Positions 9,401 to 52,380 of a DNA stretch of 64,000 nucleotides are shown here, one piece after another. The translations under genes and the position numbers were made by a program. The notes under the pieces were generated by a model. That model worked only from the letters and a program-made list of their open reading frames with translations. It searched no databases and had not been told where the DNA came from. Position 1 is the first letter of the stretch. The number at the start of each line of letters is the position of its first letter. Source of the stretch: Spirochaetota bacterium. GTDB lineage: Bacteria > Spirochaetota > UBA12135 > COTS27. The stretch covers positions 1,383,527 to 1,447,526 of the forward strand of contig AP019861.1 in NCBI GenBank assembly GCA_013426755.1, read 5' to 3'.

Positions 9401-9867
9401 TTACTTAGATTATCACCAGCAAACCAATCATTCACAGGAGCGCCTCCTATCGCAGTTATTACTGTGTAGGAGACGGGGGCTTCCTCTCCAAACGTGACTA
9501 TTAGATCAGACATGACTTCATCAGGTGAGATAAACTTTGTTGCTACTACGGTGAGGCTGGCTGGGGTAGTCGTGATACCTTGCGTCTGGTCGATATCAAT
9601 AGTGATTCTAACCGGATCCCCTGAGATCTTATTAACCAAGCCTGCGGCAATCCTAAGCTTAGGGCTACTCGGGTCAGAATTATCTACCGTAACATCAATT
9701 CCGCTAAGGTCTGGATTGCTCGTTTTAATGAGATTCGCTAGCAATGTCGGATTATCAGACGGTGCTGTCCCATCGCCTGGTGATGACGATGGAGCGCAAC
9801 TACTAAGTCCAATTAACATGATACTGCAGAAAATTATTATTAAATCTTTGAAAGCTCTATATTTCAT
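6427..9867 (-). CDS. GLUG-repeat lipoprotein, tandem copy A (1146 aa)
   Basis: Signal peptide with lipobox LSSC. The N-terminal ~750 aa consist of internally repeated modules (GITTTP, GAPV-x-DWF, RIEGLTNK). The C-terminal region has about 10 VGGLVG (GLUG-type) repeats and the tail WNFTQNQYPRLKNVVCANRQDNQDAAACTSPLP. SD GAGGA lies 5 nt upstream of the ATG. Confidence 0.9.
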   Translation of the reverse strand: MKYRAFKDLIIIFCSIMLIGLSSCAPSSSPGDGTAPSDNPTLLANLIKTSNPDLSGIDVTVDNSDPSSPKLRIAAGLVNKISGDPVRITIDIDQTQGITTTPASLTVVATKFISPDEVMSDLIVTFGEEAPVSYTVITAIGGAPVNDWFAGDNLSNYVAATFGSQGGTFSIDGTTLSIAGFTNSPTGDGEITFTLPEGFTATPDSITLPNPDGTGAATITPNPNTFTIAETGNANNSVEYTIADVPLAALTRFTPGLHVKITEGDGSTPGTDITSTLAIRGIVTEDGSNVIRIEGLTNKAGLSNYTLTIAEVDGLFTTPGNAPITRTIAEPHGTMGEFDFSPGTDGDITDPMDSSSAPTISLINSGDSEATIYTLEVVFSGAPVSDWFTATDLSKYIMRVGFAGIAANSIILNEAMKQIVIGGDSNFANEPEEKALFDINFPRGFDLSTTAITSPTGDGFAAVTSASIGTIRIFETDNPNNSQTYNVRITLAAYNSPLTGNITATYGGMPATSIIIETTNITIIGFTNDDTGTPQMGTVTVADTVRADYTVTPLSLEITDPSGKAVTNVPLGMITVTNTRTMREIPHPVTVRFDGDIQLRIEGTEITGSPLENVDPGTTIAITTGACELLAAPTITIVGFPRGKIADATPFPRYYDRDRDTLDAMTSKRTVARKLTLEDVDAEGNTTVLTSEFIIRLEFPECTTFAGGTGDSGTPYEIDNAPRLDLMSHLVISDRGTYGNKEYKLMGNIDMGLAGFPRSEVGSKHPHEMGATGKGFYPIGTGTLSSNSFSGTLDCASNSISGLYINRRINGVGLVGNASNATIKNCGLTDVNITAGSDTGGLVGFTHSSTISNSSVTGGSVTEITLPNLQDTNAGGLVGFLGFGSSVSDSYADVTLSAEGSSVGGLVGNGYRSTITNSYAIANVTGMSDSVGGLVGSMSQSTITSSYAIGSITGTGHIVGGLVGEMSDPAFIKDSYARVNVTGMSSNVGGLVGLNYSGTITNTYATGNVSGTGDNVGLFIGYNATANPIMATSTGVTSSYFSTDATLTVGGAVQTDKKGVGSDTTGASPVTTANVTGRTTDQLRVSAIVPTGAASVYVDWDKDSMGMVLSDQVWNFTQNQYPRLKNVVCANRQDNQDAAACTSPLP

Positions 9868-9891
9868 CTTATCCTCTATACGCTTATAAAT

Positions 9892-9920
9892 ATAGTATAA
9901 CTTCTCGTGCTCTTTTTGAA
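9892..9920 (-). promoter_or_regulatory. Putative sigma70-like promoter of tandem copy A in the 91-bp spacer
   Basis: On the minus strand: TTCAAA (9920-9915), 17-nt spacer, TACTAT (9897-9892), about 25 nt upstream of ATG 9867. The same arrangement is found in the next spacer. Motif match only. Confidence 0.3.
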
Positions 9921-9958
9921 GTGCTATTAGTTTGGTTATGGGTTAGGTATCGTGCTAG

Positions 9959-12900
9959 CTACGGTAACGGGCTCGTGCAGGCGGCTGCGTCTTGATTGTC
10001 CTGACGATTGGCACAGACGACATTGATGAGACGTGGGTATTGGTTTTGGGTGAAGTTCCAGACCTGCTCTGAGAGAACCATGCCCATACTATCCTTATCC
10101 CAATCCACATACACCGAAGCAGCACCAGTCGGCACAATCGCAGACACACGCAACTGATCTGTAGTCCGTCCTGTCACGTTAGCAGTCGTCACAGGAGAAG
10201 CTCCTGTGGTATCACTACCTACGCCTTTTTTATCCGTCTGCACAGCGTCTCCTACCGTTAACGTAGCATCCGTACTGAAGTAGGAACTCGTTACACCAGT
10301 ACCCGTAGGTGAACTTCCATCAGAATTTAACCCGATAAAAAGCCCTACATTATCCCCTGTTCCTGAGACATTCCCGGTCGCATAGACATTAGTGATCGTA
10401 CCACTATAGTTTAACCCGACTAAACCTCCGACATTAGCACTCATCCCTGTTACATTCACACGCGCATAGGAATCTTTGATGGAGGAAGTATCCATTTCCC
10501 CGACTAAACCTCCAAAATTAGTACCCATCTCATTAGTACTCGTCCCTGTTACAGAGCCTATCGCATAAGAACTTATGATCGTAGACTCACCCATAGACCC
10601 GACTAAACCTCCAACAGTAACACTCATCCCTGTTACATTCGCGATCGCGTAGGAATTACTGATCGCAGACCGATAAACCTGCCCGACTAAGCCCCCGACA
10701 CTAGAACCCTCTCCTGATAAGGTTACATCAGCGTAGGAATCACTGACCGAAGAAGAATAGCCAAGAAACGCGACTAAGCCTCCGGCATTAGAGTTCTGAG
10801 AAGAGCCAGGGAAACTTACTTGTGTTACGGAGCCTCCTGTTACGGAGGAGTTACTGATCGTAGAATTAGTAGCCGAATACCCGGCTAAGCCTCCTGTGTC
10901 AGGACCTCCCGTAATGTTAACGTCAGTTAAAATGCAGTTTTTAATCGTAGCATTTGAAGCATTGCCTACTAATCCTACACCATTAGTAAGTCTATTAATA
11001 TAAAGTCCTGAGATCCTTTTACTCGCACAGTCAAGCGTTCCCGAGAACGAATCATTAAGGACACTACCAATTCCGATCGGGTAAAACCCCTTACCCGTAG
11101 CCCCCATCTCATGAGGATGTTTACTGCCTACTTCACTGCGCGGAAATCCCGCCAGTCCCATATCAATATTTCCCATCAGTTTATACTCTTTATCACCATA
11201 AGTACCCCTATCACTAATAACGAGGTGCGACATGAGGTCTAACCTCGGGGCATTATCTATCTCGTAGGGCGTACCACTGTCACCTGTTCCAACAGCAAAA
11301 GTCGTACACTCTGGGAACTCTAATTTAATTATAAATTCACTAGTAAGAATACTAGTATTCCCGGCTGTGTCCACGTCTTCTAAGGTGAGCTTACGAGCAA
11401 CTGTACGTTTACTAGTCATCGTATCCAATGTGTCTCGATCACGGTCATAGTAGCGCGGAAAGGGTGTCGCATCCGCTATCTTACCGCGCGGAAAACCAAC
11501 GATAGTTATCGTAGGTGCTGCTAACAGCTCACAAGCTCCCGTCGTGATCGCAATAGTAGTTCCTGGGTCAACATTCGCTAAGGGAGTACCTGTAATCTCT
11601 GTTCCCTCGATACGCAACTGAATATCACCGTCAAACCTAACGGCAACCGGATGCGGGATTTCTCTCATCGTACGGGTATTAGTAACCGTTATCGTCCCTA
11701 GTAGTACGTTAGTAACGGCTTTTCCTGATGGATCCGTAATCGCTAAGGAGAGCGGCGTTACCGTATAACCTGTTCGTATCATAGCCTCAGTAATCATTAC
11801 TGTACCGCTCTCTGGTGTAGCCGTATCGTCATTTGTAAACCCTAAGACCGTAATATTAGTCGTCTCTATCGTTATTGAAGTAGCAGCCATTCCACCATAT
11901 GTAGCCGTGATGTTCCCTGTTAGCGGTGAATTGTACGCTGCGAGCGTGATCGTGACGGAGTATTCCTCGCTATTATTAGGATTGTCTCTTTCAGAGATCG
12001 TGATCGTACCGATTGACGCATTGGTCACCGCAGCAAAGCTATCGCCAGGGGGACTCATAATCGCACTCGTATTTAGATCAAAGCCCCTAGGAAAGTTTAT
12101 ATCAAAAAGAGCCTCTTCGCCAGGTTCGTTCGCAAAGTTACTATCACCGCCAATGACTATCTGCTTCATCGCCTCGTTAAGCATAATTGAGTTCGCAGCG
12201 ATCCCTGCAAAACCAACTCGCATGATATATTTGCTTAAATCAGTAGCTGTAAACCAATCGCTTACAGGAGCGCCACTAAATACGACTTCTAACGTATAAA
12301 TCGTAGCCTCATTCTCACCGCTATTAATAAGAGCAAAGGTCGGGGCAGAACTGTCGTCCATCGGATCGGTAATAGCTCCGTCAGTACCAGGTGAAAAATC
12401 AAATTCACCACTAGTTCCATGAGGTTCAGCGATAGTTCGTGTGATCGGGGTATTGCCTGGTGTAGTGAATAACCCATCAACCTCGGCAATCGTGAGTGTG
12501 TAGTTACCGAGTCCTGCTTTATTTGTGAGCCCTTCGATACGAATAACATTGCTCCCGTCTTCCGTGCGAACAATACCGCTAATAGCGAGCGTGCTCGTAA
12601 TATCTGTGCCTGGCGGAGTACTATCTCCTTCTGTGATCTTAACATGAAGCCCCGGCGCAAATCGTGTCAGGGCTGCTAACGGAACGTCTGCAATGCTATA
12701 AGCCATGCTATTTTCCGTATTTCCTGTTTCAGTGATCGTAAAACTATTTGGGGTAGGCGTGCTCGTCGTCTCTCCTGTTCCATCAGGATTGGGAAGTGTG
12801 ATCGAATCAGGCGTTGCTGTAAAACCTTCGGGCAGAGTGAATGTGATCTCGCCATCTCCTGTGGGGCTATTCGTAAAACCTGCTATAGAGAGAGTCGTTC

Positions 12901-13417
12901 CAGTGATGGAGAAGGTGCCCCCTTGACTTCCGAATGTTGCTGCAGCGTAGTTACTTAGATTATCACCAGCAAACCAATCATTCACAGGAGCGCCTCCTAT
13001 CACAGTTATTACTGTGTAGGAGACGGGGGCTTCCTCTCCAAACGTGACCATTAGATCAGACATGACTTCATCGGGTGAGATAAACTTTGTTGCTACTACG
13101 GTGAGGCTGGCTGGGGTAGTGGTGATGCCTTGCGTCTGGTCGATATCAATAGTGATTCTAACCGGATCCCCTGAGATCTTATTAACCAAGCCTGCGGCAA
13201 TCCTAAGCTTAGGGCTATTCGGGTCAGAATTATCTACCGTAACATCAAATCCATCAATGTCTAAATTGCTCGTTTTAATGAGATTGGCTAGCAATGTCGG
13301 ATTATCAGACGGTGCTGTCCCATCACTTGTTGATGACGACGGAGCACAACCACTAAGTCCAATTAACATGATACTGCAGAAAATTATCATTAAATCTTTG
13401 AAAGCTCTATATTTCAT
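9959..13417 (-). CDS. GLUG-repeat lipoprotein, tandem copy B (1152 aa)
   Basis: Full-length paralog of copy A with lipobox LSGC, the same architecture and an identical C-terminal ~110 aa except for single substitutions. Confidence 0.9.
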   Translation of the reverse strand: MKYRAFKDLMIIFCSIMLIGLSGCAPSSSTSDGTAPSDNPTLLANLIKTSNLDIDGFDVTVDNSDPNSPKLRIAAGLVNKISGDPVRITIDIDQTQGITTTPASLTVVATKFISPDEVMSDLMVTFGEEAPVSYTVITVIGGAPVNDWFAGDNLSNYAAATFGSQGGTFSITGTTLSIAGFTNSPTGDGEITFTLPEGFTATPDSITLPNPDGTGETTSTPTPNSFTITETGNTENSMAYSIADVPLAALTRFAPGLHVKITEGDSTPPGTDITSTLAISGIVRTEDGSNVIRIEGLTNKAGLGNYTLTIAEVDGLFTTPGNTPITRTIAEPHGTSGEFDFSPGTDGAITDPMDDSSAPTFALINSGENEATIYTLEVVFSGAPVSDWFTATDLSKYIMRVGFAGIAANSIMLNEAMKQIVIGGDSNFANEPGEEALFDINFPRGFDLNTSAIMSPPGDSFAAVTNASIGTITISERDNPNNSEEYSVTITLAAYNSPLTGNITATYGGMAATSITIETTNITVLGFTNDDTATPESGTVMITEAMIRTGYTVTPLSLAITDPSGKAVTNVLLGTITVTNTRTMREIPHPVAVRFDGDIQLRIEGTEITGTPLANVDPGTTIAITTGACELLAAPTITIVGFPRGKIADATPFPRYYDRDRDTLDTMTSKRTVARKLTLEDVDTAGNTSILTSEFIIKLEFPECTTFAVGTGDSGTPYEIDNAPRLDLMSHLVISDRGTYGDKEYKLMGNIDMGLAGFPRSEVGSKHPHEMGATGKGFYPIGIGSVLNDSFSGTLDCASKRISGLYINRLTNGVGLVGNASNATIKNCILTDVNITGGPDTGGLAGYSATNSTISNSSVTGGSVTQVSFPGSSQNSNAGGLVAFLGYSSSVSDSYADVTLSGEGSSVGGLVGQVYRSAISNSYAIANVTGMSVTVGGLVGSMGESTIISSYAIGSVTGTSTNEMGTNFGGLVGEMDTSSIKDSYARVNVTGMSANVGGLVGLNYSGTITNVYATGNVSGTGDNVGLFIGLNSDGSSPTGTGVTSSYFSTDATLTVGDAVQTDKKGVGSDTTGASPVTTANVTGRTTDQLRVSAIVPTGAASVYVDWDKDSMGMVLSEQVWNFTQNQYPRLINVVCANRQDNQDAAACTSPLP

Positions 13418-13441
13418 CTTATCCTCTATACGCTTATAAAT

Positions 13442-13470
13442 AATGTATAACTTCTCGTGCTCTTTTTGAA
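13442..13470 (-). promoter_or_regulatory. Putative sigma70-like promoter of tandem copy B in the 91-bp spacer
   Basis: Minus strand: TTCAAA (13470-13465), 17-nt spacer, TACATT (13447-13442). Homologous to the spacer upstream of copy A. Confidence 0.3.
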
Positions 13471-13508
13471 GTGCTATTAGTTTGGTTATGGGTTAGGTAT
13501 CGTGCTAG

Positions 13509-16500
13509 CTACGGTAACGGGCTTGTGCAGGCGGCTGCGTCTTGATTGTCCTGCCGATTGGCACAGACGACATTGATGAGACGTGGGTATTGGTTTTGGG
13601 TAAAGTTCCAGACCTGGTCTGAGAGAACCATGCCCATACTATCCTTATCCCAATCCACATACACCGAAGCAGCACCAGTCGGCACAATCGCAGACACACG
13701 CAACTGATCTGTAGTCCGTCCTGTCACGTTAGCAGTCGTCACAGGAGAAGCTCCTGTGGCATCACTACCTACGCCTTTTTTATCCGTCTGCACAGCGCCT
13801 CCTACCGTTAACGTAGCATCCGTACTGAAGTAGGAACTCGTTACACCAGTACCCGTAGCCATTATAGGAATAGTAGCAGTAGCATTATAACCGATAAAAA
13901 GCCCTACATTACTACCTGTTCCTGATACATTCCCGGTCGCATAGGCATTAGTGATCGTACCACTATAGTTTCGCCCGACTAAACCTCCGACATCAGAACT
14001 CATCCCTGTTACATTCACACGCGCATAGGAATCTTTAATGAAAGCAGGATCATACATTTCCCCGACTAAACCTCCAACATTAATACCCGTCCCTGTTACA
14101 GAGCCTATCGCATAGGAACCAGTGATCGAAGCCCCCGCAGCATAGATAGACCCGACTAAACCTCCAACAAAATCATCCATCCCTGTTACATTCGCGATCG
14201 CATAGGAATTACTGATCCCAGACCGATCAACATTCCCAACTAAGCCCCCGACACTAGACCCCTTTCCTGATAAGGTTACATCAGCGTAGGAATCACTGAC
14301 CGAAGAAGAAGCGCTAAGAAACGCGACTAAGCCTCCGGCATTAGAGTTCACAGCGTTAGGAATACTTACTTGTGTTACGGAGCCTCCTATTACGGAGGAG
14401 TTACTGATCGTAGAATTAGTAGCCGCAATCCCGACTAAGCCTCCTGTGCTAGGACCTCCCTTAATGTTAACGTCAGTTAGAATGCAGTTTTTAATCGTAG
14501 CACCTAAAGCATTGCCTACTAATCCTACGCCATTAGTAAGTCTATTAATATAAAGTCCTGAGACCCTCTTACTCGCACAGTCAAGCATTCCCGAGAACGA
14601 AGTAGCAGCGGCACTACCAGTTCCGATCGGGTAAAACCCCTTACCCGTAGCCCCCATCTCATGAGGATGTTTACTGCCTACTTCACTGCGCGGAAATCCC
14701 GCCAGTCCCATATCAATATTTCCCGTCAGTTTATACTCTTTATTACCATAAGTACCCCTATCACTACTAACGAGGTGCGACATGAGGTCTAACCTCGGGG
14801 CATTATCTATCTCGTAGGGCGCAGCACTATCACCTGTTCCAACAGCAAAAGTCGTGCACTCTGGGAACGCTAATTTAATTATAAATTCACTAGTAAGAAT
14901 ACTAGTATTCCCGGCTGTGTCCACGTCTTCTAAGGTGAGCTTACGAGCAACCGTAAATTTACCCGAGGCTAGTGTGTCTCGATCACGGTCATAGTAGCGC
15001 GGAAAGGGTGTCGCATCCGCTATCTTACCGCGCGGAAAACCAACGATAGTTATCGTAGGTGCTGCTAACAGCTCACAAGCTCCCGTCGTAACCGCAATAG
15101 TAGTTCCTGAGTCAACATTCGCTAAGGGAGTACCTGTAATCTCTGTTCCCTCGATACGCAACTGAATATCACCGTCAAACCTAACGGTAACCGGATGCGG
15201 GATTTCTCTCATCGTACGGGTATTAGTAACCGTTATCATCCCTAGTAGTACGTTAGTAACGGCTTTTCCTGATGGATCCGTAATCGGTAAGGAGAGGGGC
15301 GTTACCGTATAACCTGTTCGTATCATAGCCTCAGCAATCGTTACTGTACCCATCTCTGGTGTACCTGTATCGTCATTCGTAAACCCTATGATCGTAATAT
15401 TAGTAGTCTCTATGATTACTGAAGTAGCGGCCATCCCACCATACATAGCCGTAATGCTCCCTGTTAGCGGTGAATTGTACGCTGCGAGCGTGATCGTGAC
15501 GGAGTATTCCTCGCTATTATTAGGATTGTCTCTTTCAGAGATCGTGATCGTGCCGATTGACTCACTGGCCACCGCAGCAAATCCATCGCCAGCGGGACTC
15601 ATAAGCGCACTCGTATTTAGATCAAAGCCCCTAGGAAAGTTTATATCAAAAAGAGCCTTTTCGCCAGGTTCGTTCGCAAAGTTACTATCACCGCCAATGA
15701 CTATCTGCTTCATCGCCTCGTTAAGTATAATTGAGTTCGCAGCGATCCCTGCGAAACCAACTCGCATGATATATTTGCTTAAATCAGTTGCTGTAAACCA
15801 ATCGCTTACAGGAGCGCCCCTAAATACGACTTCTAAGGTATAAATAACCTCACCACTACCGTCGCTATTGGTGAGAGAAACGGTCGGGGCAGAACTGCTG
15901 TCCATCGGATCAGTAATAGCTCCGTCAGTGCCAGGTGAAAAGTCTAATTCACCACTAGCTCCATGAGGTTCAGCGATAGTCCGTGTGATCGGGGTACTGT
16001 TTGGTGTCATGAATAACCCATCAACCTCGGCAATCGTAAGTGTGTAGTTACCGAGTCCTGCTTTATTTGTGAGCCCTTCGATACGAATAACATTGCTCCC
16101 GTCTTCCGTGACAATACCGCTAATAGCGAGCGTGCTCGTAATATCTCTACCTGGTGGAGTACTATCTCCTTCTGTGATCTTAACATGAAGTCCTGGCGTA
16201 AATCGTGTCAGGGCTGCTAACGGAACGTCTGCAATTGTGTATTCTACTGAGTTGTTAGCATTTCCCGTCTCAGCGATCGTGAAAGTATTCGGATTGGGCG
16301 TGCTCGTTGTCTCTCCTGTTCCATCAGGATTGGGAAGTGTGATCGAATCAGGCGTTGCTGTAAAACCTTCGGGCAGAGTGAATGTAATCTCGCCAGTTCC
16401 TGTGAGGCTATTCGTGAAACCTGCTACAGAAAGAGTCGTTCCATCAATAGAGAACGTGCCCCCTTGACTTCCGAATGTTGCTGCGACGTAGTTACTTAGA

Positions 16501-16958
16501 TTATCACCAGCAAACCAATCATTCACAGGAGCGCCTCCTATCGCAGTTATTACTGTGTAGGAGACGGGGGCTTCCTCTCCAAACGTGACTATTAGATCAG
16601 ACATGACTTCATCAGGTGAGATAAACTTTGTTGCTACTACGGTGAGGCTGGCTGGGGTAGTCGTGATACCTTGCGTCTGGTCGATATCAATAGTGATTCT
16701 AACCGGATCCCCTGAGATTTTATTAACCAAGCCTGCGGCAATCCTAAGCTTAGGGCTACTCGGGTCAGAATTATCTACCGTAACATCAAATCCATCAATG
16801 TCTAAATTGCTCATTTTAATGAGATTCGCTAGCAATGTCGGATTATCAGACGGTGCTGTCCCATCGCTTGGTGATGACGATGGAGCGCAACTACTAAGTC
16901 CAATTACCATGATACTGCAGAAAATTAATATTGAATGCATGAAGGGGCGAAATTTCAT
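13509..16958 (-). CDS. GLUG-repeat lipoprotein, tandem copy C (1149 aa)
   Basis: Full-length paralog of A and B with lipobox LSSC. Its upstream region (16959-17100) matches the other spacers but carries an extra ~85-bp insertion containing a local duplication (attgaacgc-tgt-tta x2). Confidence 0.9.
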   Translation of the reverse strand: MKFRPFMHSILIFCSIMVIGLSSCAPSSSPSDGTAPSDNPTLLANLIKMSNLDIDGFDVTVDNSDPSSPKLRIAAGLVNKISGDPVRITIDIDQTQGITTTPASLTVVATKFISPDEVMSDLIVTFGEEAPVSYTVITAIGGAPVNDWFAGDNLSNYVAATFGSQGGTFSIDGTTLSVAGFTNSLTGTGEITFTLPEGFTATPDSITLPNPDGTGETTSTPNPNTFTIAETGNANNSVEYTIADVPLAALTRFTPGLHVKITEGDSTPPGRDITSTLAISGIVTEDGSNVIRIEGLTNKAGLGNYTLTIAEVDGLFMTPNSTPITRTIAEPHGASGELDFSPGTDGAITDPMDSSSAPTVSLTNSDGSGEVIYTLEVVFRGAPVSDWFTATDLSKYIMRVGFAGIAANSIILNEAMKQIVIGGDSNFANEPGEKALFDINFPRGFDLNTSALMSPAGDGFAAVASESIGTITISERDNPNNSEEYSVTITLAAYNSPLTGSITAMYGGMAATSVIIETTNITIIGFTNDDTGTPEMGTVTIAEAMIRTGYTVTPLSLPITDPSGKAVTNVLLGMITVTNTRTMREIPHPVTVRFDGDIQLRIEGTEITGTPLANVDSGTTIAVTTGACELLAAPTITIVGFPRGKIADATPFPRYYDRDRDTLASGKFTVARKLTLEDVDTAGNTSILTSEFIIKLAFPECTTFAVGTGDSAAPYEIDNAPRLDLMSHLVSSDRGTYGNKEYKLTGNIDMGLAGFPRSEVGSKHPHEMGATGKGFYPIGTGSAAATSFSGMLDCASKRVSGLYINRLTNGVGLVGNALGATIKNCILTDVNIKGGPSTGGLVGIAATNSTISNSSVIGGSVTQVSIPNAVNSNAGGLVAFLSASSSVSDSYADVTLSGKGSSVGGLVGNVDRSGISNSYAIANVTGMDDFVGGLVGSIYAAGASITGSYAIGSVTGTGINVGGLVGEMYDPAFIKDSYARVNVTGMSSDVGGLVGRNYSGTITNAYATGNVSGTGSNVGLFIGYNATATIPIMATGTGVTSSYFSTDATLTVGGAVQTDKKGVGSDATGASPVTTANVTGRTTDQLRVSAIVPTGAASVYVDWDKDSMGMVLSDQVWNFTQNQYPRLINVVCANRQDNQDAAACTSPLP

Positions 16959-43348: not shown

Positions 43349-46162
43349 ATGAAGCGAAGACTAGTCAATTATCCTACTAATAACGTTATTCACACCCAAA
43401 ATACAACTGCCACCACCCCATCAAATCCTACCCATACAACCTCTACTAAAAAAAATGACGATGAACCCAATGCAGCTGAAAATACCGAAGCAGACATTGA
43501 TATTGATCCCGTTGAAACCCAGGAATGGACGCATTCACTCCATGATGTTATTAAACGTGATGGCATTGATCGTGCTAATTTTTTATTGTCTTCGCTTATC
43601 AAAGAAATTCCCAATTCTACTATAGCAGTCACCATTCCTAAGCAGAGTTCTGCCTACGTTAATACCATTCCAACGGAAGAAGAAGTCCCCTATCCCGGTG
43701 ATCTGACCATTGAACGCTCGATAAGTAACGCCATTCGATGGAATGCTATGGCAATGGTATTACGCGCCAATAAACGCTCAGCAGGTATTGGCGGACACAT
43801 TGCAACCTATGCCTCCTGTGCAACTATTTATGATGTCGCATACAATCATTTCTTTAAAGGCAGCCAAAACGGTAATGTAGGCGATTCTGTATTTTTCCAG
43901 GGACATGCTTCACCTGGTATTTATGCTCGGGCTTACATTGAAGGGGTATTATCTGAGCAGAAAATTGAAAACTTTCGTAGAGAATTACTACCTGGCGGCG
44001 GTCTTTCTTCCTATCCACATCCACGGCTTGTACCCGATTTCTGGCAATTTGCTACCGTCTCGATGGGACTGGGTCCTCTCATGGCTATTTATCACGCCCG
44101 TTTCAATAAATGGCTTAAAAATCGTAACCTCAAAGACACCTCACCTACAAAAGTCATTGCTTATGTAGGAGATGGTGAAACAGATGAAGTAGAAACACTA
44201 GGCGCCCTTTCTATCGCCGCTCGGGAAAATCTGGACAATTTACTCTTTGTCGTCAATTGCAATCTGCAACGTCTCGACGGACCTGTTCGTGGAAACAGTA
44301 AAATCATTCAAGAACTAGAAGGCATCTTTAGAGGTGCTGGCTGGAATGTCATCAAAACTATCTGGAGTCACCATTGGGACCCCTTATTTGAAAAAGACTC
44401 CAAAAACGCCCTCCTCAATCTACTAGAAACAGCCGTCGACGGCGATTTTCAAGTTTTTTCTACACTCTCAGGCGCTGAAAGACGTAGGTTTTTATTTGCT
44501 CGTGATAAGGAAGTAGAAAAATTGGTTGCACATTTTTCTGACCATCATCTAGACGATCTTACTTTTGGCGGGCACGACGAACAAAAACTCTACAACGCTT
44601 ACGAGCGCGCTCTCAATGTAAGCAATGGCAAACCTACCGTTATGCTCATTAAAAGCATTAAGGGATATGGAATGGGAAAAAGTGGTGAAGGACGTAATAT
44701 TGCCCACCAGCAGAAAGAAATGAGCAGCGAATCACTTCAAAACTTCAAACAACGATTTAATATTCCCATTGAAGACGCCGTGCTAGAACAAACACCGTTT
44801 TACAATTTCAAAAAAAATAGCCCAGAACATGCTTATATTAACGATCTTCGTAAGAAATTAGGTGATTTTATACCACACAGACGCCAAACCATACCAGCAA
44901 TCACACTCCCAGCCTCTGCCACTTATGAAAGAACTCTAGCTGGAACAGGAAAACGGGCTGTTTCTAGTACAATGGCATTCGTCCAGGTCTTAACAGCACT
45001 TTTGCGTGATAAAAACTTATCAGAGCGTATTGTTCCCATTGTTCCAGACGAAAGCCGTACCTTTGGAATGGAAGGACTCTTTCGCCAGTATGGAATTTAT
45101 TCCCCCAGCGGACAACTTTATACGCCCATTGACAAAAAAACCCTAGCTCCATACAATGAAAGTGTAGACGGACAGATCTTTCAAGAAGGTATTAATGAAG
45201 CCGGTGCTATATCGACATTCATTGCTGCGGGAACCAGTTATAGCCACCAGGGTATTTTAACCATTCCATTTTACGTGTTTTATTCAATGTTTGGTTTCCA
45301 GCGAACAGGTGATCTCGCTTGGGCTGCCGCTGATATGCAAGCACGCGGGTTTTTAGTCGGCGGTACGGCAGGCAGAACAACCCTCAATGGCGAAGGACTC
45401 CAACACGAAGACGGACATTCACACATTCTTGCCGCTACAATTCCTAATCTCCGTGCCTATGATGCAACCTTCGGTTACGAATTAGCCACCATCATTAAAA
45501 ACGGACTTAAAGCCATGTATCAAGACAAACAGGATTGCTTTTACTACCTTACCATTTACAATGAAAATTACCCCCACCCTGCATTGCCAACTGATATTCC
45601 AGATATTGAAACAAAAATCATGAAGGGGCTTTATTGCTACAAAAAAAGTGCATTGAAATCAAAAAAACAGGTCAATATTCTCGCTTCAGGTATTTCACTA
45701 CTCACCGCTGAGCGAGCAAGTGAAATTCTTGAAAAAGAGTACCGTATTGCCACAACGCTTTATGCCGTTACTTCCTTCAAAGCCCTCCGTGAAGACGCGC
45801 TTGCCTGCGAACGTGAAAATATGCTTCATCCTAATAAAACACCCAAAACCTCGTTTCTAGCTAAAAGTCTTAGTGACGCTGAAGGGGGATTTGTTGCCGT
45901 GACCGATTATATGAAAGCCTTACCCGATCTTATTGCTCCATTTATGCCCAGTGCTATGGTGAGTATCGGTACAGATGGATTTGGCCGTTCGGCTACACGT
46001 GAAGAGTTGCGTGAATATTTTGAGATCAATGAATCTTTTATTATTCTCGCTTCCCTACATGCGCTCACCAAACAAAATATCCTTACCCAAGCAGAACTCA
46101 CCCAAGCAATCAAAAAACTTAACATTGACCCTAAAAAACCCTATCCACTTAATCGTTTTTAA
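43349..46162 (+). CDS. aceE: Pyruvate dehydrogenase E1 component (homodimeric type)
   Basis: 937 aa. DPVETQEWTHSL matches the AceE N-terminus after a ~50-aa T/N-rich extension. GGHIATYAS, the ThDP motif GDGETDEVE ... VVNCNLQRLDGPVRGN, and HEDGHSH are present. SD GAGGA lies 7 nt upstream. Confidence 0.95.
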   Translation: MKRRLVNYPTNNVIHTQNTTATTPSNPTHTTSTKKNDDEPNAAENTEADIDIDPVETQEWTHSLHDVIKRDGIDRANFLLSSLIKEIPNSTIAVTIPKQSSAYVNTIPTEEEVPYPGDLTIERSISNAIRWNAMAMVLRANKRSAGIGGHIATYASCATIYDVAYNHFFKGSQNGNVGDSVFFQGHASPGIYARAYIEGVLSEQKIENFRRELLPGGGLSSYPHPRLVPDFWQFATVSMGLGPLMAIYHARFNKWLKNRNLKDTSPTKVIAYVGDGETDEVETLGALSIAARENLDNLLFVVNCNLQRLDGPVRGNSKIIQELEGIFRGAGWNVIKTIWSHHWDPLFEKDSKNALLNLLETAVDGDFQVFSTLSGAERRRFLFARDKEVEKLVAHFSDHHLDDLTFGGHDEQKLYNAYERALNVSNGKPTVMLIKSIKGYGMGKSGEGRNIAHQQKEMSSESLQNFKQRFNIPIEDAVLEQTPFYNFKKNSPEHAYINDLRKKLGDFIPHRRQTIPAITLPASATYERTLAGTGKRAVSSTMAFVQVLTALLRDKNLSERIVPIVPDESRTFGMEGLFRQYGIYSPSGQLYTPIDKKTLAPYNESVDGQIFQEGINEAGAISTFIAAGTSYSHQGILTIPFYVFYSMFGFQRTGDLAWAAADMQARGFLVGGTAGRTTLNGEGLQHEDGHSHILAATIPNLRAYDATFGYELATIIKNGLKAMYQDKQDCFYYLTIYNENYPHPALPTDIPDIETKIMKGLYCYKKSALKSKKQVNILASGISLLTAERASEILEKEYRIATTLYAVTSFKALREDALACERENMLHPNKTPKTSFLAKSLSDAEGGFVAVTDYMKALPDLIAPFMPSAMVSIGTDGFGRSATREELREYFEINESFIILASLHALTKQNILTQAELTQAIKKLNIDPKKPYPLNRF

Positions 46163-46301: not shown

Positions 46302-47717
46302 TTGATTATGGATTTTACAGTAGAACTTACAGATATAGGCGACGGCATCAGTAGCGGACTTGTCACAGCGATCTTACCTAAAACAGGAGACTCCGTTAGT
46401 GAAGGGGATACTCTCATAGAGATAGAAACTGATAAAGCAGTTATTCCATTTCCCTCGCCAAAAGAAGGCACATTGGGGCAAGTTTTTATCAAAGAAGGCA
46501 CAGAGATTAAAGTTGGTGATAAAATCGCTACGCTAAAAACGCAAGCTACAGCCACACCTTCAGCCACCGAACCGCCATCTGTCACAACTAAAGAACACAA
46601 ACTAGAACCTCCACCCTCTCCACCACCAGCGCAGGAACCACCCACAACCCTAGCAGAGCCGCCCACCGCAATTCATAGCAAATCCACACCCGACCAGCAA
46701 CCTGTGGTTAATAATGCAGTAGCTAAGCACAATCAAGAAAACCTTGTCAACACAGAACACGCCACAGAACAAGCTATCATAGCCGCGTCGCCTGGCACAA
46801 GAAAGCTAGCACGCGAACTGGATATCACACTCAGTGTGGTTGGCGGTAGCGGACGTAATGGACGAATTACTATGGATGACCTCAAATCTTACGTCAAACA
46901 ATCCCTACATTCTCAGTCCACTACCGCACTGCTCCCTACTGGAACGACTTCACCTATGCAAGCAGCGGCGCCGCTACCTGATTTTAGCGAATTTGGAGCT
47001 GTTGAGATTAAGCCGGTCTCGAGCCTCAGACAAACAATTGCTAGAAATATGCAGACCTCATGGAGTACAATTCCGCACGTTCATCACAATAGCAAATTTG
47101 ACATTTCCGTAATCACTGCCTGGCAAAAGTCTTATCACGAAGATTTTAAGGCACTAGGTAGCACGTTATCGGTCACACCCATTCTCATTAAAGCCCTAGC
47201 GCACATCCTTAAAGAATTTCCAGAGTTCAATGCTTCCTTTGATACTATAAAAAATGAAATTCATTACAAAAAGTATTACCATATTGGCGTTGCAGTAGAT
47301 ACTCCTTCGGGACTTATTGTCCCCGTTATAAAAGATGTTGATACGCTCTCGGTTTTTGCAATTGGTAAAACCTTGCGTGATATTGCTAAAAAGACACGTG
47401 ACCGTAAAATTGGCTTAGCTGACCTTAAAGGGGCGTGTTTGACATTGTCTAATCTGGGTGGAATTGGTGGTGAGCATTTCACGCCTATTATCAATCCACC
47501 AGAAGTGGCTATTGTAGGTGTTGCCCGTACGATAAATGAGGTCGTCCTCTCCCCAACTACGAAGCAACCCCTAACAATTCCCATGCTACCCGTTACGCTA
47601 GGGTACGATCATCGAGTGATCGATGGGGCAGTAGCGGCACGATTTCTTGTTCGGCTCAAATCGCTCATTGAAGCGCCACAGACACTTCTTATGGGACTCG
47701 AACTTCCTAGCAAGTAA
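46302..47717 (+). CDS. aceF: Dihydrolipoamide acetyltransferase E2 (single lipoyl domain)
   Basis: Lipoyl-lysine motif IEIETDKAVIPFPSP, Pro/Ala/Thr linker, subunit-binding domain ASPGTRKLARELDITLSVVGGSGRNGRITMDDL, catalytic GYDHRVIDGA. The likely start is ATG 46308 (MDFTVEL) rather than TTG 46302. Confidence 0.95.
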   Translation: MIMDFTVELTDIGDGISSGLVTAILPKTGDSVSEGDTLIEIETDKAVIPFPSPKEGTLGQVFIKEGTEIKVGDKIATLKTQATATPSATEPPSVTTKEHKLEPPPSPPPAQEPPTTLAEPPTAIHSKSTPDQQPVVNNAVAKHNQENLVNTEHATEQAIIAASPGTRKLARELDITLSVVGGSGRNGRITMDDLKSYVKQSLHSQSTTALLPTGTTSPMQAAAPLPDFSEFGAVEIKPVSSLRQTIARNMQTSWSTIPHVHHNSKFDISVITAWQKSYHEDFKALGSTLSVTPILIKALAHILKEFPEFNASFDTIKNEIHYKKYYHIGVAVDTPSGLIVPVIKDVDTLSVFAIGKTLRDIAKKTRDRKIGLADLKGACLTLSNLGGIGGEHFTPIINPPEVAIVGVARTINEVVLSPTTKQPLTIPMLPVTLGYDHRVIDGAVAARFLVRLKSLIEAPQTLLMGLELPSK

Positions 47718-47805
47718 TGTCCATAGAAGATAGAGGGAAGGGACATAAGAATTTTCCTTCGGTACGGAGGAACACTGTATTATCTTTTGTTTAGAAAGCT
47801 ATTAT

Positions 47806-47833
47806 ACGGCGTCATCTTTAAAGAATTAATATG
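47806..47833. repeat. Left copy of the 28-bp direct repeat flanking the MTase-HNH gene (includes its ATG)
   Basis: acggcgtcatctttaaagaattaatatg; 24 of 28 positions match the right copy. Confidence 0.75.
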
Positions 47834-49108
47834 CTGCAGAAAACTATCAAAAACAGAACTGTATTTTGTAGAGACAATCTAGAAATACTACGAAATATTG
47901 ATGATAAGACGATTGACCTCATTTATCTAGACCCCCCTTTCAATAAGAAAAGAGAGTTTCACGCTCCATTAGGTACTAAGGCTGAGGGAGCAAGCTTTAA
48001 AGATACGTGGGATGATGAAGACATCAAAAAAGGCTATCTGACACTCATTGCCGACTTATACCCTAACCTTTATAAATATTTACTAGGAGTAGATATCGTA
48101 GGAAGTCGTAGTCATAGAAATTATCTCGTTTACATGGCACAACGGGTCATTGAAATGAAGAGAATCTTAAAAAACACAGGTAGCATCTATCTTCATTGTG
48201 ACTATACAATGAGTCATTATCTAAAATTACTGATGGACTGCATCTTTGGTCATAAAAATCTTAGAAATGAGATCATCTGGTGTTATCACGGTCCCGGCAG
48301 CCCAGATATGCGGCAATTTAATAGGAAAAGTGATAATATATTTTGGTATTCTATCGGAGAAACGTGGACATTTAACAAAGAAGCTATAAGAGTTCCATTT
48401 AAAGACCCTAAGCAAAGCTTAAGAAAAAGAATGGCTCCCAGCCATAGTTTCACCTCAGCAGAAATTAAAGAGTACCGTGAAAAAGGAAAAATTCCAGAGA
48501 ATTGGTGGGAAATTCGCATTGCTGCCCGCAGTCCAAAGGAATATGTCGGATATCCTACCCAAAAACCACTGGCATTAATGGAAAGAATTATTAAAGCAAG
48601 TAGTCGTAAAGGGGATGTTGTCTTAGACCCATTTTGTGGGTGTGCGACAACATGTGTTGCTGCTGAGAACCTGGGAAGACAATGGGTCGGTATTGATGTT
48701 TCAAAAAGAGCTTACGATCTCGTTAAAACAAGATTGGAGTCTGCTATAAAAGGAACCGATGAACATGGCAATCAAGATTTAATCAATTATCAAAAAGCAA
48801 TTGTCTACAGAGAAGATATTCCCGACCGTACAGATATTAAAGACCGTCGTTTGTCCTATAGAACAGCTAAAATTGAAATTAAACACATCCTTTATGAAGA
48901 ACAAAATGCCAGCTGCAATGGCTGCCGCACGCAATTTGAATACAGACACTTTGAAATAGATCACATTGTCCCAACAACAAAAGGAGGTGGTGATACCATT
49001 GAAAACCTACAATTGCTCTGTCATCACTGCAATAGAATCAAAGGAAATAAAGATATGGAGCATCTCAACATGAGACTGCAGGAATTGAATATCATAAAAA
49101 ACAATTGA
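47831..49108 (+). CDS. Beta-class (DPPF, probably N6-adenine) DNA methyltransferase fused to a C-terminal HNH endonuclease domain
   Basis: Motif IV DLIYLDPPF is N-terminal. GYPTQKPLALMERII and motif I LDPFCGCATTCVAA are also present. The C-terminal ~70 aa read CNGCRTQFEYRHFEIDHIVPTTKGGGDTIENLQLLCHHCNRIKGNKD (HNH). Confidence 0.85.
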   Translation: MLQKTIKNRTVFCRDNLEILRNIDDKTIDLIYLDPPFNKKREFHAPLGTKAEGASFKDTWDDEDIKKGYLTLIADLYPNLYKYLLGVDIVGSRSHRNYLVYMAQRVIEMKRILKNTGSIYLHCDYTMSHYLKLLMDCIFGHKNLRNEIIWCYHGPGSPDMRQFNRKSDNIFWYSIGETWTFNKEAIRVPFKDPKQSLRKRMAPSHSFTSAEIKEYREKGKIPENWWEIRIAARSPKEYVGYPTQKPLALMERIIKASSRKGDVVLDPFCGCATTCVAAENLGRQWVGIDVSKRAYDLVKTRLESAIKGTDEHGNQDLINYQKAIVYREDIPDRTDIKDRRLSYRTAKIEIKHILYEEQNASCNGCRTQFEYRHFEIDHIVPTTKGGGDTIENLQLLCHHCNRIKGNKDMEHLNMRLQELNIIKNN

Positions 49109-49267
49109 CCTTTTTACAAAAAACGACTAACCTTCAATCACAAAATATTCATAAAAACAGTCGTACCTTGTTAAGAGCATATATTACCATCCGTTAATAA
49201 GGACAATGCTTTACGATCTGTTAAAGCACTATTGTAGCATTTCTGTTTAGGTGGTTTTAGGTGGTTG

Positions 49268-49295
49268 ACGGTGTCATCTTTAAAAGATTGATATG
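49268..49295. repeat. Right copy of the 28-bp direct repeat, 160 bp downstream of the MTase-HNH stop
   Basis: acggtgtcatctttaaaagattgatatg, 1462 bp from the left copy. Confidence 0.75.
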
Positions 49296-49319
49296 CGATT
49301 AAAATAAGTCAAGTCTTAT

Positions 49320-49389
49320 TAATGCATTATTAACAGAGCACAAAACACTTGACTTTTTGCCAAATTTTAGTTATACTAATAATGCATTG
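49320..49389 (+). promoter_or_regulatory. Near-consensus sigma70 promoter bracketed by two copies of a 10-bp palindrome (putative operators)
   Basis: TTGACT (49349-54), 17-nt spacer, TATACT (49372-77). The palindrome TAATGCATTA sits at 49320-29 and TAATGCATTG at 49380-89, 60 bp apart. Confidence 0.55.
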
Positions 49390-49430
49390 TTAAAAATACA
49401 TCATTAAAATCATTTCATGCATACCGATTG

Positions 49431-49510
49431 GCTAATTTAGACCTCGACTCACATTTTATCAGTCAATTCAGCTAATTTAGACCTCAATTTACACTTTATC
49501 AGTCAATTTT
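49431..49510. repeat. 40-bp tandem repeat (~2.3 copies) in the leader of the Panacea-like gene
   Basis: gctaatttagacctcgactcacattttatcagtcaattca, then gctaatttagacctcaatttacactttatcagtcaatttt, then a partial copy actttatcag. Confidence 0.85.
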
Positions 49511-49686
49511 ACTTTATCAGCCCATTCACACTTCATCAATTAATTAACACATTCAATTAATTAACGCATCTCAGTTTAATAAAATCATTCTCGAATTATA
49601 TTCAGTTTTATCGCATCAAAGTGATTTGAATTGGGTACTGAGGGAATAACTAAAGAAAACGCTAATTTTAGTTGATATAATTTTCA

Positions 49687-50262
49687 TTGGAGGAAGAAAT
49701 GACGATGGAAACAAAGCAAAATACAGAAAAGACTATTGACAGGTCTAATACTAAAACGATCGATGACGATAAACCTGCCCTCTACACACCCTCGCACATT
49801 GCTAACTACTTTTTAGCAAAGAAAAACCATGATATTGATAATTTGAAGCTAAACAAGCTTGTGTACATTTCTTACGGATGGGGGACCGCGATTGGAATAG
49901 AACTATTCGATGAACCTATACAAGCATGGAAATTAGGGCCTGTTATTCCTTCGCTTTATCATGAGTTTAAACATTTTGGAAGCAAAATTATAACTGAAAT
50001 GTCTAAAATATATAACCTTAAAGAAAATGAGGTTATCATTCCCGAAGTAGAAAAAGGTACTGACAGTTTTACATTATTAAAAAAAATTGCAGATAATTAC
50101 GGTAAGATAAGTTCTCTCGATCTTGTAGATATCACTCATCGCGAGGATACTCCGTGGAATAAAACATACTACGATGAAAAGGTTTATAAACATACTAATA
50201 AATTTCATTTAGAAATACCCAAGGACGTCATAAAAGAATATTATTCGAGTTATAGGAAATAA
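49687..50262 (+). CDS. Panacea/DUF4065 (GepA/SocA-like) domain protein, candidate antitoxin
   Basis: IANYFLAKK ... LKLNKLVYISYGWGTAIGIELFDEPIQAWKLGPVIPSLYHEFKHFG is the pattern I associate with DUF4065. The track start is TTG 49687. ATG 49699 or ATG 49705, after GGAGGA (49689-94), is more likely. Confidence 0.7.
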   Translation: MEEEMTMETKQNTEKTIDRSNTKTIDDDKPALYTPSHIANYFLAKKNHDIDNLKLNKLVYISYGWGTAIGIELFDEPIQAWKLGPVIPSLYHEFKHFGSKIITEMSKIYNLKENEVIIPEVEKGTDSFTLLKKIADNYGKISSLDLVDITHREDTPWNKTYYDEKVYKHTNKFHLEIPKDVIKEYYSSYRK

Positions 50263-50299
50263 CTAGTCATTAACGAATAAGATACCAAGAAAAATAGAA

Positions 50300-50746
50300 A
50301 TGGGAAATCCAAAATTAGACCTAGAAGAACTCATGAGAAGGGAAATTAGTGCACAGAGAGACCAGCGTGCTTCCCAATCAGATAATTTCAGAGAAGAATA
50401 CAAACGTAAACGTGCTGAAGGCGTTGCTTCCGCAAGAGCAAATTACGGTCATGCTTCCCAACAAGAAATAAAAGAATTAAGGGAGTCTAAAAAACAAGAA
50501 GAAAAGGACAAAAGAGACTATAGGAGAATAGAAATATTACGAGACGTAATAATGTGGAGTCTTATACTTCTAGGTATTGCCCTTTCTTTAGGTTTACTAT
50601 TATTTTTTCTGTCTAGATGTACCGATATTGGAGCTGCCTTAACCGACACAAGAACTGAATTTCATTTCTTAAGTCTGCTCACTGCTGGACTGCTCGCCAT
50701 TATCACTACCTGTATAGGTCTGATAGGAGGTTCTTCTATAAAATAG
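50300..50746 (+). CDS. Unknown 148-aa protein: charged helical N-terminal half plus two C-terminal TM helices (candidate membrane toxin)
   Basis: The gene starts 37 bp downstream of the Panacea-like gene on the same strand. The N-terminal ~85 aa are E/K/R/Q-rich. The predicted TM helices are IMWSLILLGIALSLGLLLFFL and FLSLLTAGLLAIITTCIGLIGG. Confidence 0.55.
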   Translation: MGNPKLDLEELMRREISAQRDQRASQSDNFREEYKRKRAEGVASARANYGHASQQEIKELRESKKQEEKDKRDYRRIEILRDVIMWSLILLGIALSLGLLLFFLSRCTDIGAALTDTRTEFHFLSLLTAGLLAIITTCIGLIGGSSIK

Positions 50747-50931
50747 ACTGTCACGCTACCTTATATAAGTCGCTCAGTCAATACATAAGTCGTTCAATAA
50801 TACGTCGTTCAATAATACAATTTTATCTATCTTTATCCATATCTTAATTTATCCTAACCATATTACTTACTATTTCTTTAATTTTACTGGTTTTCTAATA
50901 ATTTACAATTGCTGGAGCAGATGATCTATCC

Positions 50932-52380
50932 ATGAAAATACTAGAAACAGAATGTCTCGTCATAGGCGGTGGTCCTGGTGGCTACACAGCGGCATTTTAT
51001 GCTGCTGATCACAATATTAAAACAACCCTCATCGAACGCTACCCCAGACTAGGCGGCGTTTGTCTCAATGTCGGGTGTATTCCTTCTAAAGCCCTACTCC
51101 ATTTAGCAGCCCTTAAAGAAGAGACTAAAGAATTGGAAACTATAGGTATTGGTAGCAAGGATTTTAAAATCAATCTAGCCAAAACACGTACGCATAAAGG
51201 TAACATTGTTCAAAAACTCACAGGCGGTCTCAATCAACTCGCCAAAGCACGCAAAGTAAATGTTATAAACGGTGTTGCTACATTCATTGACGCTAACAAT
51301 GTGCTCGTGAAAGAGAATAACGAGGAAACTCGCATTGTCTTCAACCAAGCTATCATTGCCGCAGGATCACGACCCATTATTCCTAAAAGCTTAGCACTAA
51401 ATACCGATCGCGTTATGACCAGTACAGGCGCACTAGACTTAAAAGATATTCCAGAAAAATTGCTTGTCATAGGTGGCGGTATCATAGGTATGGAAATGGG
51501 CTACGTCTACGCTAGCTTTGGCTCTGCTGTCACAATGGTCGAAGCATTACCACACATTGGCACAGGAATTGACCGCGACGTCTTTACGCCGCTAGAAAGA
51601 AAATTGAAACGGTTGTTTAAAAGCATTCAACCCAATACAACCGTCAGCAAAATAACCCAAAAAGGCAATAAAATCATTGCCACATTCACTCCCAACGAAC
51701 CTAAAAGTGCTGCTGACAATAGTTCTCATAGTTCCCAAAATACTACAGCAGAATTTGATCGCGTCCTGGTCTCAGTTGGCAGAAGAGCCAATAGCGATCT
51801 CTTAGACCTTGAAAAAGCCATGGTTCATACAGACGATCACGGTTTTATCAAAGTTGATAACCAATTGCGTACCAATGTCTCAAATATTTATGCAATTGGC
51901 GATATTGTAGGAAACCCAATGCTCGCTCATAAAGCGAGTAGAGAAGCGCACATTGCTGTCGAGGCGCTTATGGGAAAGAAGACCACTTTTGATAACATTG
52001 TCATTCCCAATGTCATTTATACCGACCCTGAAGTCGCTTGGGCTGGCATGACTGAAGCTGAAGTTAAAGAACAAAACATCCCTTATAAAACAGGTGTTTT
52101 TCCATGGGCTGCCTCAGGCCGGGCACTGGCTATCGGAAAAACAGCGGGAACGACCAAAATTATTTTTCATAGCGAGACAGAACGCTTGCTAGGAGTGGCC
52201 ATGTGCGGCACAGGTGCTGGTGAATTGATTGCTGAAGCTGTGCTAGCTATCGAAATGGGGGCTGTTGTCTCAGACATTACAGAAACCATTCATGCGCATC
52301 CTACCCTTTCTGAAACCTTTTTAGAAGCCGCTGAAGCAGGACATGGGCTCTCTACCCATTATTTCAGTAGAAAGAGATAA
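50932..52380 (+). CDS. lpdA: Dihydrolipoyl dehydrogenase (E3)
   Basis: GGGPGGYTAAFYAA FAD motif, redox disulfide GGVCLNVGCIPSKALL, NAD motif GGGIIGMEMG, C-terminal HAHPTLSE. Confidence 0.95.
   Translation: MKILETECLVIGGGPGGYTAAFYAADHNIKTTLIERYPRLGGVCLNVGCIPSKALLHLAALKEETKELETIGIGSKDFKINLAKTRTHKGNIVQKLTGGLNQLAKARKVNVINGVATFIDANNVLVKENNEETRIVFNQAIIAAGSRPIIPKSLALNTDRVMTSTGALDLKDIPEKLLVIGGGIIGMEMGYVYASFGSAVTMVEALPHIGTGIDRDVFTPLERKLKRLFKSIQPNTTVSKITQKGNKIIATFTPNEPKSAADNSSHSSQNTTAEFDRVLVSVGRRANSDLLDLEKAMVHTDDHGFIKVDNQLRTNVSNIYAIGDIVGNPMLAHKASREAHIAVEALMGKKTTFDNIVIPNVIYTDPEVAWAGMTEAEVKEQNIPYKTGVFPWAASGRALAIGKTAGTTKIIFHSETERLLGVAMCGTGAGELIAEAVLAIEMGAVVSDITETIHAHPTLSETFLEAAEAGHGLSTHYFSRKR

Follow-up and report, generated by a model that had tools for sequence, protein, structure and literature searches.

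In a 64,000-nt stretch of the genome of a Spirochaetota bacterium (lineage UBA12135; COTS27; GenBank assembly GCA_013426755.1, contig AP019861.1, positions 1,383,527 to 1,447,526 of the forward strand; hereafter the window, whose own numbering is used throughout), two adjacent genes at 49699-50746 probably make up a type II toxin-antitoxin (TA) module of the PanA-PanT class, in which a Panacea-domain antitoxin is followed by a small membrane toxin. Because the module fits the published description of that class feature by feature, we place it there as an ordinary member; the pairing itself is common in bacteria and phages. An earlier note, made from the DNA letters alone, had singled out the same two genes as a new TA module. 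The Panacea domain, the architecture of the partner protein and the synteny of the two genes uphold the two-gene Panacea-antitoxin module, while its novelty does not stand: the arrangement had already been described for the PanA-PanT systems T3 and T12 (PMC8832971), and the same layout occurs in hundreds of loci. The two genes carry the following features.

49699-50262, + strand: panA, encoding a standalone Panacea (DUF4065) predicted antitoxin of 187 aa, from its PF13274 match, PHROG 1281, homologues and an AlphaFold2 model.
49689-49693, + strand: Shine-Dalgarno sequence GGAGG, 5 nt ahead of ATG 49699, from sequence inspection.
50300-50746, + strand: panT candidate of the '...IGxxxGSSI(K/E/D)-stop' subfamily, 148 aa, its N-terminal half charged and helical and followed by two transmembrane (TM) helices, from the open reading frame (ORF), its architecture and PanA-linked relatives.
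50528-50623, + strand: hydrophobic segment 1 of PanT (aa 77-108), with the basic stretch KDKRDYRRIEILRD just before it, from Kyte-Doolittle 19-residue windows and a continuous AlphaFold2 helix at 4-111.
50660-50734, + strand: hydrophobic segment 2 of PanT (aa 121-145), the most conserved part of the subfamily, from Kyte-Doolittle windows, alignment and AlphaFold2.

The first ORF was called mechanically at 49687-50262 on the + strand, opening at TTG 49687. Its start is most likely the ATG at 49699, because GGAGG lies 5 nt ahead of that codon and the resulting 187-aa product is the one held in the protein collection (P0002). The Panacea signature had been recognised in the earlier note, and a hidden Markov model (HMM) search bears it out: Pfam PF13274 (SocA_Panacea) matches at 47.6 bits (E 3.7e-12) against a curated cut-off of 25.7, with ORF residues 55-157 aligned to profile positions 1-112 of 113. 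PHROG 1281 also matches (E 1.7e-36), and PF13274 was found in all 98 of the 98 homologues of this PanA. The conserved Panacea core is present, including the GPV motif, which matters for neutralisation (PMC8832971); in the stretch that carries it, AWKLGPVIPSLYHEFK, G80 and P81 never vary across a 28-sequence alignment and V82 hardly does. An AlphaFold2 model built from 28 homologues is confident (predicted local distance difference test, pLDDT, 90.8; predicted template modelling score, pTM, 0.82), except that residues 1-30 are non-helical, have no secondary structure and are of low confidence. Panacea is the sole domain found by the Pfam scan and in the model, neither of which contains a helix-turn-helix (HTH). 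Comparison with solved structures gave no sequence match and no Foldseek match at E<=0.001, and the BFVD matches to the model are unnamed phage proteins only. A second PanA paralogue, P0008 (COTS27_01656), is encoded on the same contig outside the window, with 51% identity (49% by tblastn).

The founding Panacea antitoxin is SocA of the Caulobacter type VI TA system SocAB. The window PanA aligns across the whole NCBIfam SocA model (NF047745), yet its 79.7 bits stay below the equivalog cut-off of 190; it therefore belongs with the Panacea proteins without being an equivalog of SocA. SocA serves as ClpXP adaptor for a soluble toxin, SocB, which acts by blocking the sliding clamp of DNA polymerase, whereas the partner in the window is a membrane protein.

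The panT candidate begins 37 nt past the panA stop codon and is co-oriented with panA. The earlier note had described it as having a charged N-terminal half followed by two TM helices, and this description holds: Kyte-Doolittle profiles give the two hydrophobic segments listed above, and a single-sequence AlphaFold2 model (mean pLDDT 81.5) has helices at 4-111 and 117-145, which is the architecture of the T3/T12-like membrane-type PanTs. The C-terminus reads ...IGLIGGSSIK-stop, and the conserved positions of segment 2 and the tail are L124, L131, I134, T136, I139, G140, G144, S145, S146 and I147. By analogy with validated PanTs of like architecture, the protein is credible as a membrane-acting toxin, which the earlier note had thought plausible.

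Kurata et al. (2022, PNAS; PMC8832971) named the Panacea domain and validated nine PanA-PanT pairs. In three of the nine, those of Escherichia coli STEC O31, Helicobacter and Bartonella apis, the PanT targets the membrane, is toxic and is neutralised by its cognate PanA; small TM peptides account for many of the predicted PanTs (PMC8832971). The window pair resembles two of these systems, T3 (E. coli STEC O31, WP_000019185.1 with PanA WP_000287252.1) and T12 (Bartonella apis, WP_077993242.1), in which a PanA without an N-terminal domain (NTD) is paired with a toxin that has a charged N-terminus and C-terminal TM helices, membrane disruption having been validated for both the E. coli and the Bartonella apis system (PMC8832971). 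In the supplementary table of that paper the T3 and T12 entries run antitoxin then toxin, their PanAs are marked 'noNTD' and the gaps range from -29 to +22 nt; gene order, a small gap or overlap, the lack of an N-terminal domain in PanA and a location in accessory DNA are common to these systems and the window pair. The window toxin is likened to theirs by architecture, its sequence homology to that family being unproven, and it differs in stopping right after TM2 with GSSIK instead of a K-x-LFP tail, in its longer N-terminal arm (~80 aa) and in lying 37 nt from panA.

We infer the toxicity, neutralisation, membrane action, topology and regulation of the window pair by analogy with such systems. 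In the work of Ernits et al. (2023, PNAS; PMC10440598), a standalone Panacea protein neutralises a TM toxin directly via the N-terminal region of the toxin and its pre-TM helix. The case in point is Blautia choladocola PanT(D11):PanA, whose interface, formed by the toxin N-terminal region and a short helix ahead of the TM segment, was predicted and is mutationally supported (PMC10440598). Likened by description, that pair has the same composition of a standalone Panacea protein and a membrane-depolarising TM toxin, and we adopt its model here. PanT would then be a small inner-membrane protein with both termini in the cytoplasm, in which a charged helical cytoplasmic arm of ~80 aa leads into TM1, and TM2 follows after a short loop on the outside and leaves a tail of 4 residues in the cytoplasm. 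The basic stretch KDKRDYRR ahead of TM1 is consistent with the positive-inside rule for this topology. Free PanT would oligomerise in the membrane and dissipate the membrane potential or permeabilise the membrane, as for validated membrane PanTs, and PanA would neutralise it by binding directly to the cytoplasmic N-terminal region and the helix before TM1. The two genes, with the antitoxin first, are presumably co-transcribed. By analogy, the module may serve addiction or an anti-phage function resembling abortive infection, carried on a small horizontally acquired island; such a role may apply because relatives neighbour phage and restriction-modification genes.

Searched as a single sequence, the PanT candidate finds only itself, both in a word-indexed collection of 5.8 billion proteins and in a full phmmer search of 1.84 billion representatives, and no Pfam, PADLOC, NCBIfam or PHROG family matches it above any cut-off (PADLOC PDC-M18B, at 15.2 bits, and Pfam DUF2207_C and DUF2951 fell under theirs and were rejected). 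The earlier claim that the protein matches nothing is nevertheless contradicted by its PanA-linked relatives. The nearest PanA homologues, on ENA metagenome contigs (50-56% identity), are each adjoined or overlapped downstream by an ORF of 96-104 aa, whose product has two TM segments after a charged N-terminus and ends ...IG-x-V/I-x-GSSI(E/D)-stop. A four-way alignment with the window PanT has 13 invariant positions, mostly in TM2 and the tail, and TM2 and the C-terminal motif are common to the window PanT and four PanA-linked relatives at 21-33% overall identity. When the window protein was searched by phmmer against the 73 hydrophobic PanA partners collected from 85 loci, it matched those at L033, the locus of a Leptonemataceae metagenome-assembled genome (MAG), at 27.2 bits (E 1.4e-8) and at locus L004 at 25.1 bits (E 6.4e-8), with none of the reversed-sequence controls at E<10. 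The protein seems an orphan because scores of 25-27 bits, significant among 73 sequences, are not significant in a billion-sequence database. By these alignments it is a member of a small PanA-partner subfamily, not an orphan. This GSSI subfamily was found only in this genome, in the one Leptonemataceae MAG and on three ENA metagenome contigs, and a metagenome scan seeded with the GSSI motif gave no confirmable match. At a further locus, L002, the only ORF after a close PanA homologue (50% identity) is truncated to 58 aa (3500-3676); it is charged and lacks TM segments, and is possibly a decayed toxin that has left an orphan antitoxin.

We surveyed PanA homologues for a partner, defined as a small hydrophobic ORF starting -70 to +130 nt from the PanA stop. 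Among genome/ENA loci, 73 of 85 have such an ORF after PanA; the figures are 56 of 77 for viral loci from IMG/VR and 62 of 67 for metagenome loci from JGI. The other 12 of the 85 genome/ENA loci lack one by this definition, some of them at contig ends. The pair thus co-occurs as a conserved two-gene neighbourhood in unrelated genomes. Most partners belong to one family, which we denote 'LSD..TTT..YLFP', whose members begin with a charged N-terminus and continue with a basic E-R-K-x-Y-A motif, TM1, an 'LSD' loop, a TM2 of the form 'L-I-A-L-L-x-T-T-T-x-N-V-x-G' and, as tail, 'K-x-L-F-P'. Neither Pfam nor PADLOC was found to have a model for this family, the 28 partners scanned giving only scattered sub-threshold matches to unrelated TM families, and a search with a profile of the partner alignment returned only 25 unnamed proteins, none with Pfam domains.

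Lambdoid prophages of E. coli and other Enterobacteriaceae carry PanA followed by a 126-128-aa two-TM 'hypothetical protein' of PHROG 33656 (in E. coli, loci L085 1834-2687, L086, L087 2501-3351, L088 and L090; for example WP_060710353.1/WP_060710354.1 and WP_000331648.1/WP_001292087.1). Layout and partner architecture are the same as in the window, but these partners are of an 'FSD..V..A.T....LNV....LGVIRGLFP' family and the window ORF does not match PHROG 33656. The prophage pairs occupy accessory positions and adjoin restriction-modification or prophage accessory genes: some lie between a cI-like repressor and kil/gam/bet, and one directly follows an Eco57I-like methylase and a BsuBI/PstI endonuclease. 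These positions, the abundance of relatives on viral and prophage contigs, and the gene for a DNA methyltransferase-HNH fusion (MTase-HNH) that the window module adjoins would all suit a pair that is primarily a phage-defence sensor-effector acting by abortive infection, and a sensor role for Panacea has been hypothesised by Ernits et al. (PMC10440598). We hold such a primary role to be possible though on balance unlikely. No PADLOC model matches PanA or PanT, and phage defence by a PanA-PanT system with a membrane PanT is not reported in the portions of PMC8832971 and PMC10440598 consulted. The proposal differs from a PanA-PanT module with a membrane toxin in biological role, not in molecular mechanism, and overlaps with it.

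Several observations weigh against our assignment of the pair to the PanA-PanT class. The second ORF has a weak ribosome-binding region and is separated from panA by a 37-nt gap, while the closest relatives overlap panA, and its N-terminal arm is ~35-40 aa longer than theirs. Sequence homology to the LSD..TTT..YLFP family is not established, because a leave-out HMM that represents the broad family of partners, the prophage proteins of E. coli among them, gives the window PanT 4.7 bits, within the range of shuffled sequences (up to 6.2), hhalign returns a probability of 20%, and within the subfamily only the member at L003 is clear (24.1 bits; L001, 10.3 bits). For the subfamily as a whole, sequence homology to the large family is only suggestive, while architecture and gene position are alike. 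Gene decay is also possible in COTS27, apparently an uncultured starfish symbiont; at L002 the partner is truncated to 58 aa.

Some of the same observations would fit a second ORF that is no toxin at all but a remnant in decay or a membrane partner that does no harm, next to a PanA with another role, be it an orphan or a protein of phage origin. On this proposal the poor ribosome-binding site and the gap, the failure of single-sequence searches to find a relative, the 58-aa ORF at L002 and the 12 loci with no hydrophobic ORF downstream would be expected. We nevertheless judge it improbable, since ORF 50300-50746 is intact, its TM2 and C-terminal motif are kept in four diverged PanA-linked relatives, and its architecture is that of validated toxins (PMC8832971). 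The region upstream of panA has the following features.

49317-49333, no strand assigned: 17-nt repeat unit with the palindromic core TAATGCATTA at 49320-49329, upstream of the -35, from repeat and motif scans.
49349-49377, + strand: sigma-70-like TTGACT-17-TATACT, a possible promoter ~320 nt ahead of the panA ATG, a 10/12 match.
49377-49393, no strand assigned: second 17-nt unit with the core TAATGCATTG at 49380-49389, overlapping the end of the -10 and the predicted +1, from repeat and motif scans.
49431-49569, + strand: direct repeats in tandem (40 nt x2, 19 nt x ~3.6, 17 nt x2), part of the non-coding leader, from a repeat scan.
49673-49681, + strand: TGATATAAT, a perfect extended -10 (TGnTATAAT) 8 nt ahead of the Shine-Dalgarno sequence, an alternative proximal promoter candidate, from sequence inspection.

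The earlier note had called TTGACT/TATACT the best promoter in the window and had read the two palindromes around it as an autoregulated TA operator. The promoter-like sequence is there, but it is not the best: a scan of the whole window gave three sites at 11/12 and 27 at 10/12 (30 sites with at least 10/12), and in the surrounding 2 kb the count of promoter-like sites is 9, where shuffles predict 8.9. The match is at chance level. The palindromes are real. The two 17-nt units are 15/17 identical and exactly 60 bp apart, the TAATGCATT(A/G) palindrome has only one further site in 64 kb, and its 4 strand matches (the perfect palindrome at 49320 being counted on both strands) compare with a shuffle mean of 0.63, so that the pair is above chance.

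A rare palindrome pair flanking a 10/12 promoter match is what would be seen if PanA or the PanA-PanT complex bound these sites and autoregulated its operon in the manner of classical type II TA systems. This autoregulation is not supported, and we consider it very improbable. Classical autoregulated type II antitoxins have a DNA-binding domain (HTH, ribbon-helix-helix, AbrB or the like), whereas the window PanA has none, its Panacea domain being preceded only by the non-helical residues 1-30. Panacea itself is probably not a transcriptional autoregulator, and the PanAs that do autoregulate carry an HTH (PMC10440598). The site, moreover, is ~320 nt from the start codon across a leader filled with repeats and without predicted structure, and no similar layout of palindromes and promoter was seen upstream of any of the 9 homologous loci examined.

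The leader between the distal promoter-like site and panA spans ~300 nt (49390-49686) and is filled with tandem direct repeats. It holds no small ORF (no + strand ORF of >=20 aa within 49198-49686). A structured RNA or riboswitch was considered for the leader and rejected, there being no Rfam match at E<=1 and a fold z of +0.88, no better than shuffles. The TGATATAAT site is missing from the promoter scan list because it has no -35, and transcription could start either there or at the distal TTGACT/TATACT site.

These upstream sequences also enter another proposal, namely that the module represents a distinct unannotated PanT lineage, defined by the '...IGxxxGSSI(K/E/D)-stop' motif, and is controlled not by its antitoxin but by a host- or phage-encoded DNA-binding factor acting at the TAATGCATT(A/G) palindromes, at the iteron-like leader repeats (49431-49569), or at both. 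We give this combined proposal only a slim chance. The ATGCAT core of the palindrome was also tried as a target of the neighbouring MTase-HNH and found no support, with 11 occurrences against ~20 expected, unremarkable among comparable palindromes.

The module lies in a 3.2-kb island (47718-50931) between aceF and lpdA, with a G+C content of ~30-38% against ~40-47% in the flanks, and the gene neighbouring the module encodes an N6_N4_Mtase and HNH fusion (47831-49108), in agreement with the accessory insertion beside an MTase-HNH gene that had been described. The island splits the pyruvate dehydrogenase genes aceE (43349-46162) and aceF (46302-47717) from lpdA (50932-52380); transcription of lpdA must therefore come from read-through or from a promoter of its own. 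A scan of 49000-51000 gave no terminator-like site. Downstream of the panT stop and ahead of lpdA, TCAATAATACGTCGT is repeated in tandem, with a 15-nt unit and 2.7 copies (50778-50818).

The MTase-HNH is a single 425-aa polypeptide with an N6/N4 DNA methyltransferase domain (PF01555) and a C-terminal HNH nuclease, and the interval from aceF to lpdA showed no restriction gene separate from it. The MTase-HNH gene is flanked by an imperfect direct repeat of ~65 nt (47773-47834 and 49229-49296; 29-nt core, 86% identity) that ends in ATATGC and takes in the MTase start codon; the ATG of the downstream copy opens only a 4-codon ORF. Inside this downstream copy lies a perfect 10-nt tandem duplication, TTTAGGTGGT x2 (49246-49266). 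The arrangement resembles the insertion of a cassette or the duplication of a 5' region, and because the gene is flanked by its own imperfect direct repeat, this suggests that the MTase-HNH arrived, or was duplicated in, apart from the PanA-PanT module. Elsewhere in the window, three consecutive ORFs of 1146-1152 aa on the - strand (6427-16958) may be tandem paralogues, judging from their near-equal size, and two of them hold matching 151-aa antisense ORFs (8297-8752 and 15388-15843).

The practical gains from this assignment are modest and it opens no new mechanistic question. What is original is the window toxin, a member of a rare, unannotated PanT subfamily. The case also shows that an apparent orphan in billion-sequence searches can be placed in a family through conserved synteny with its antitoxin. 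Our survey confirms that this clade of PanA has a two-TM partner almost always, in cells and in phages alike. The GSSI subfamily and the larger LSD..TTT..YLFP family, which have no Pfam, NCBIfam or PADLOC model, could now be given one.

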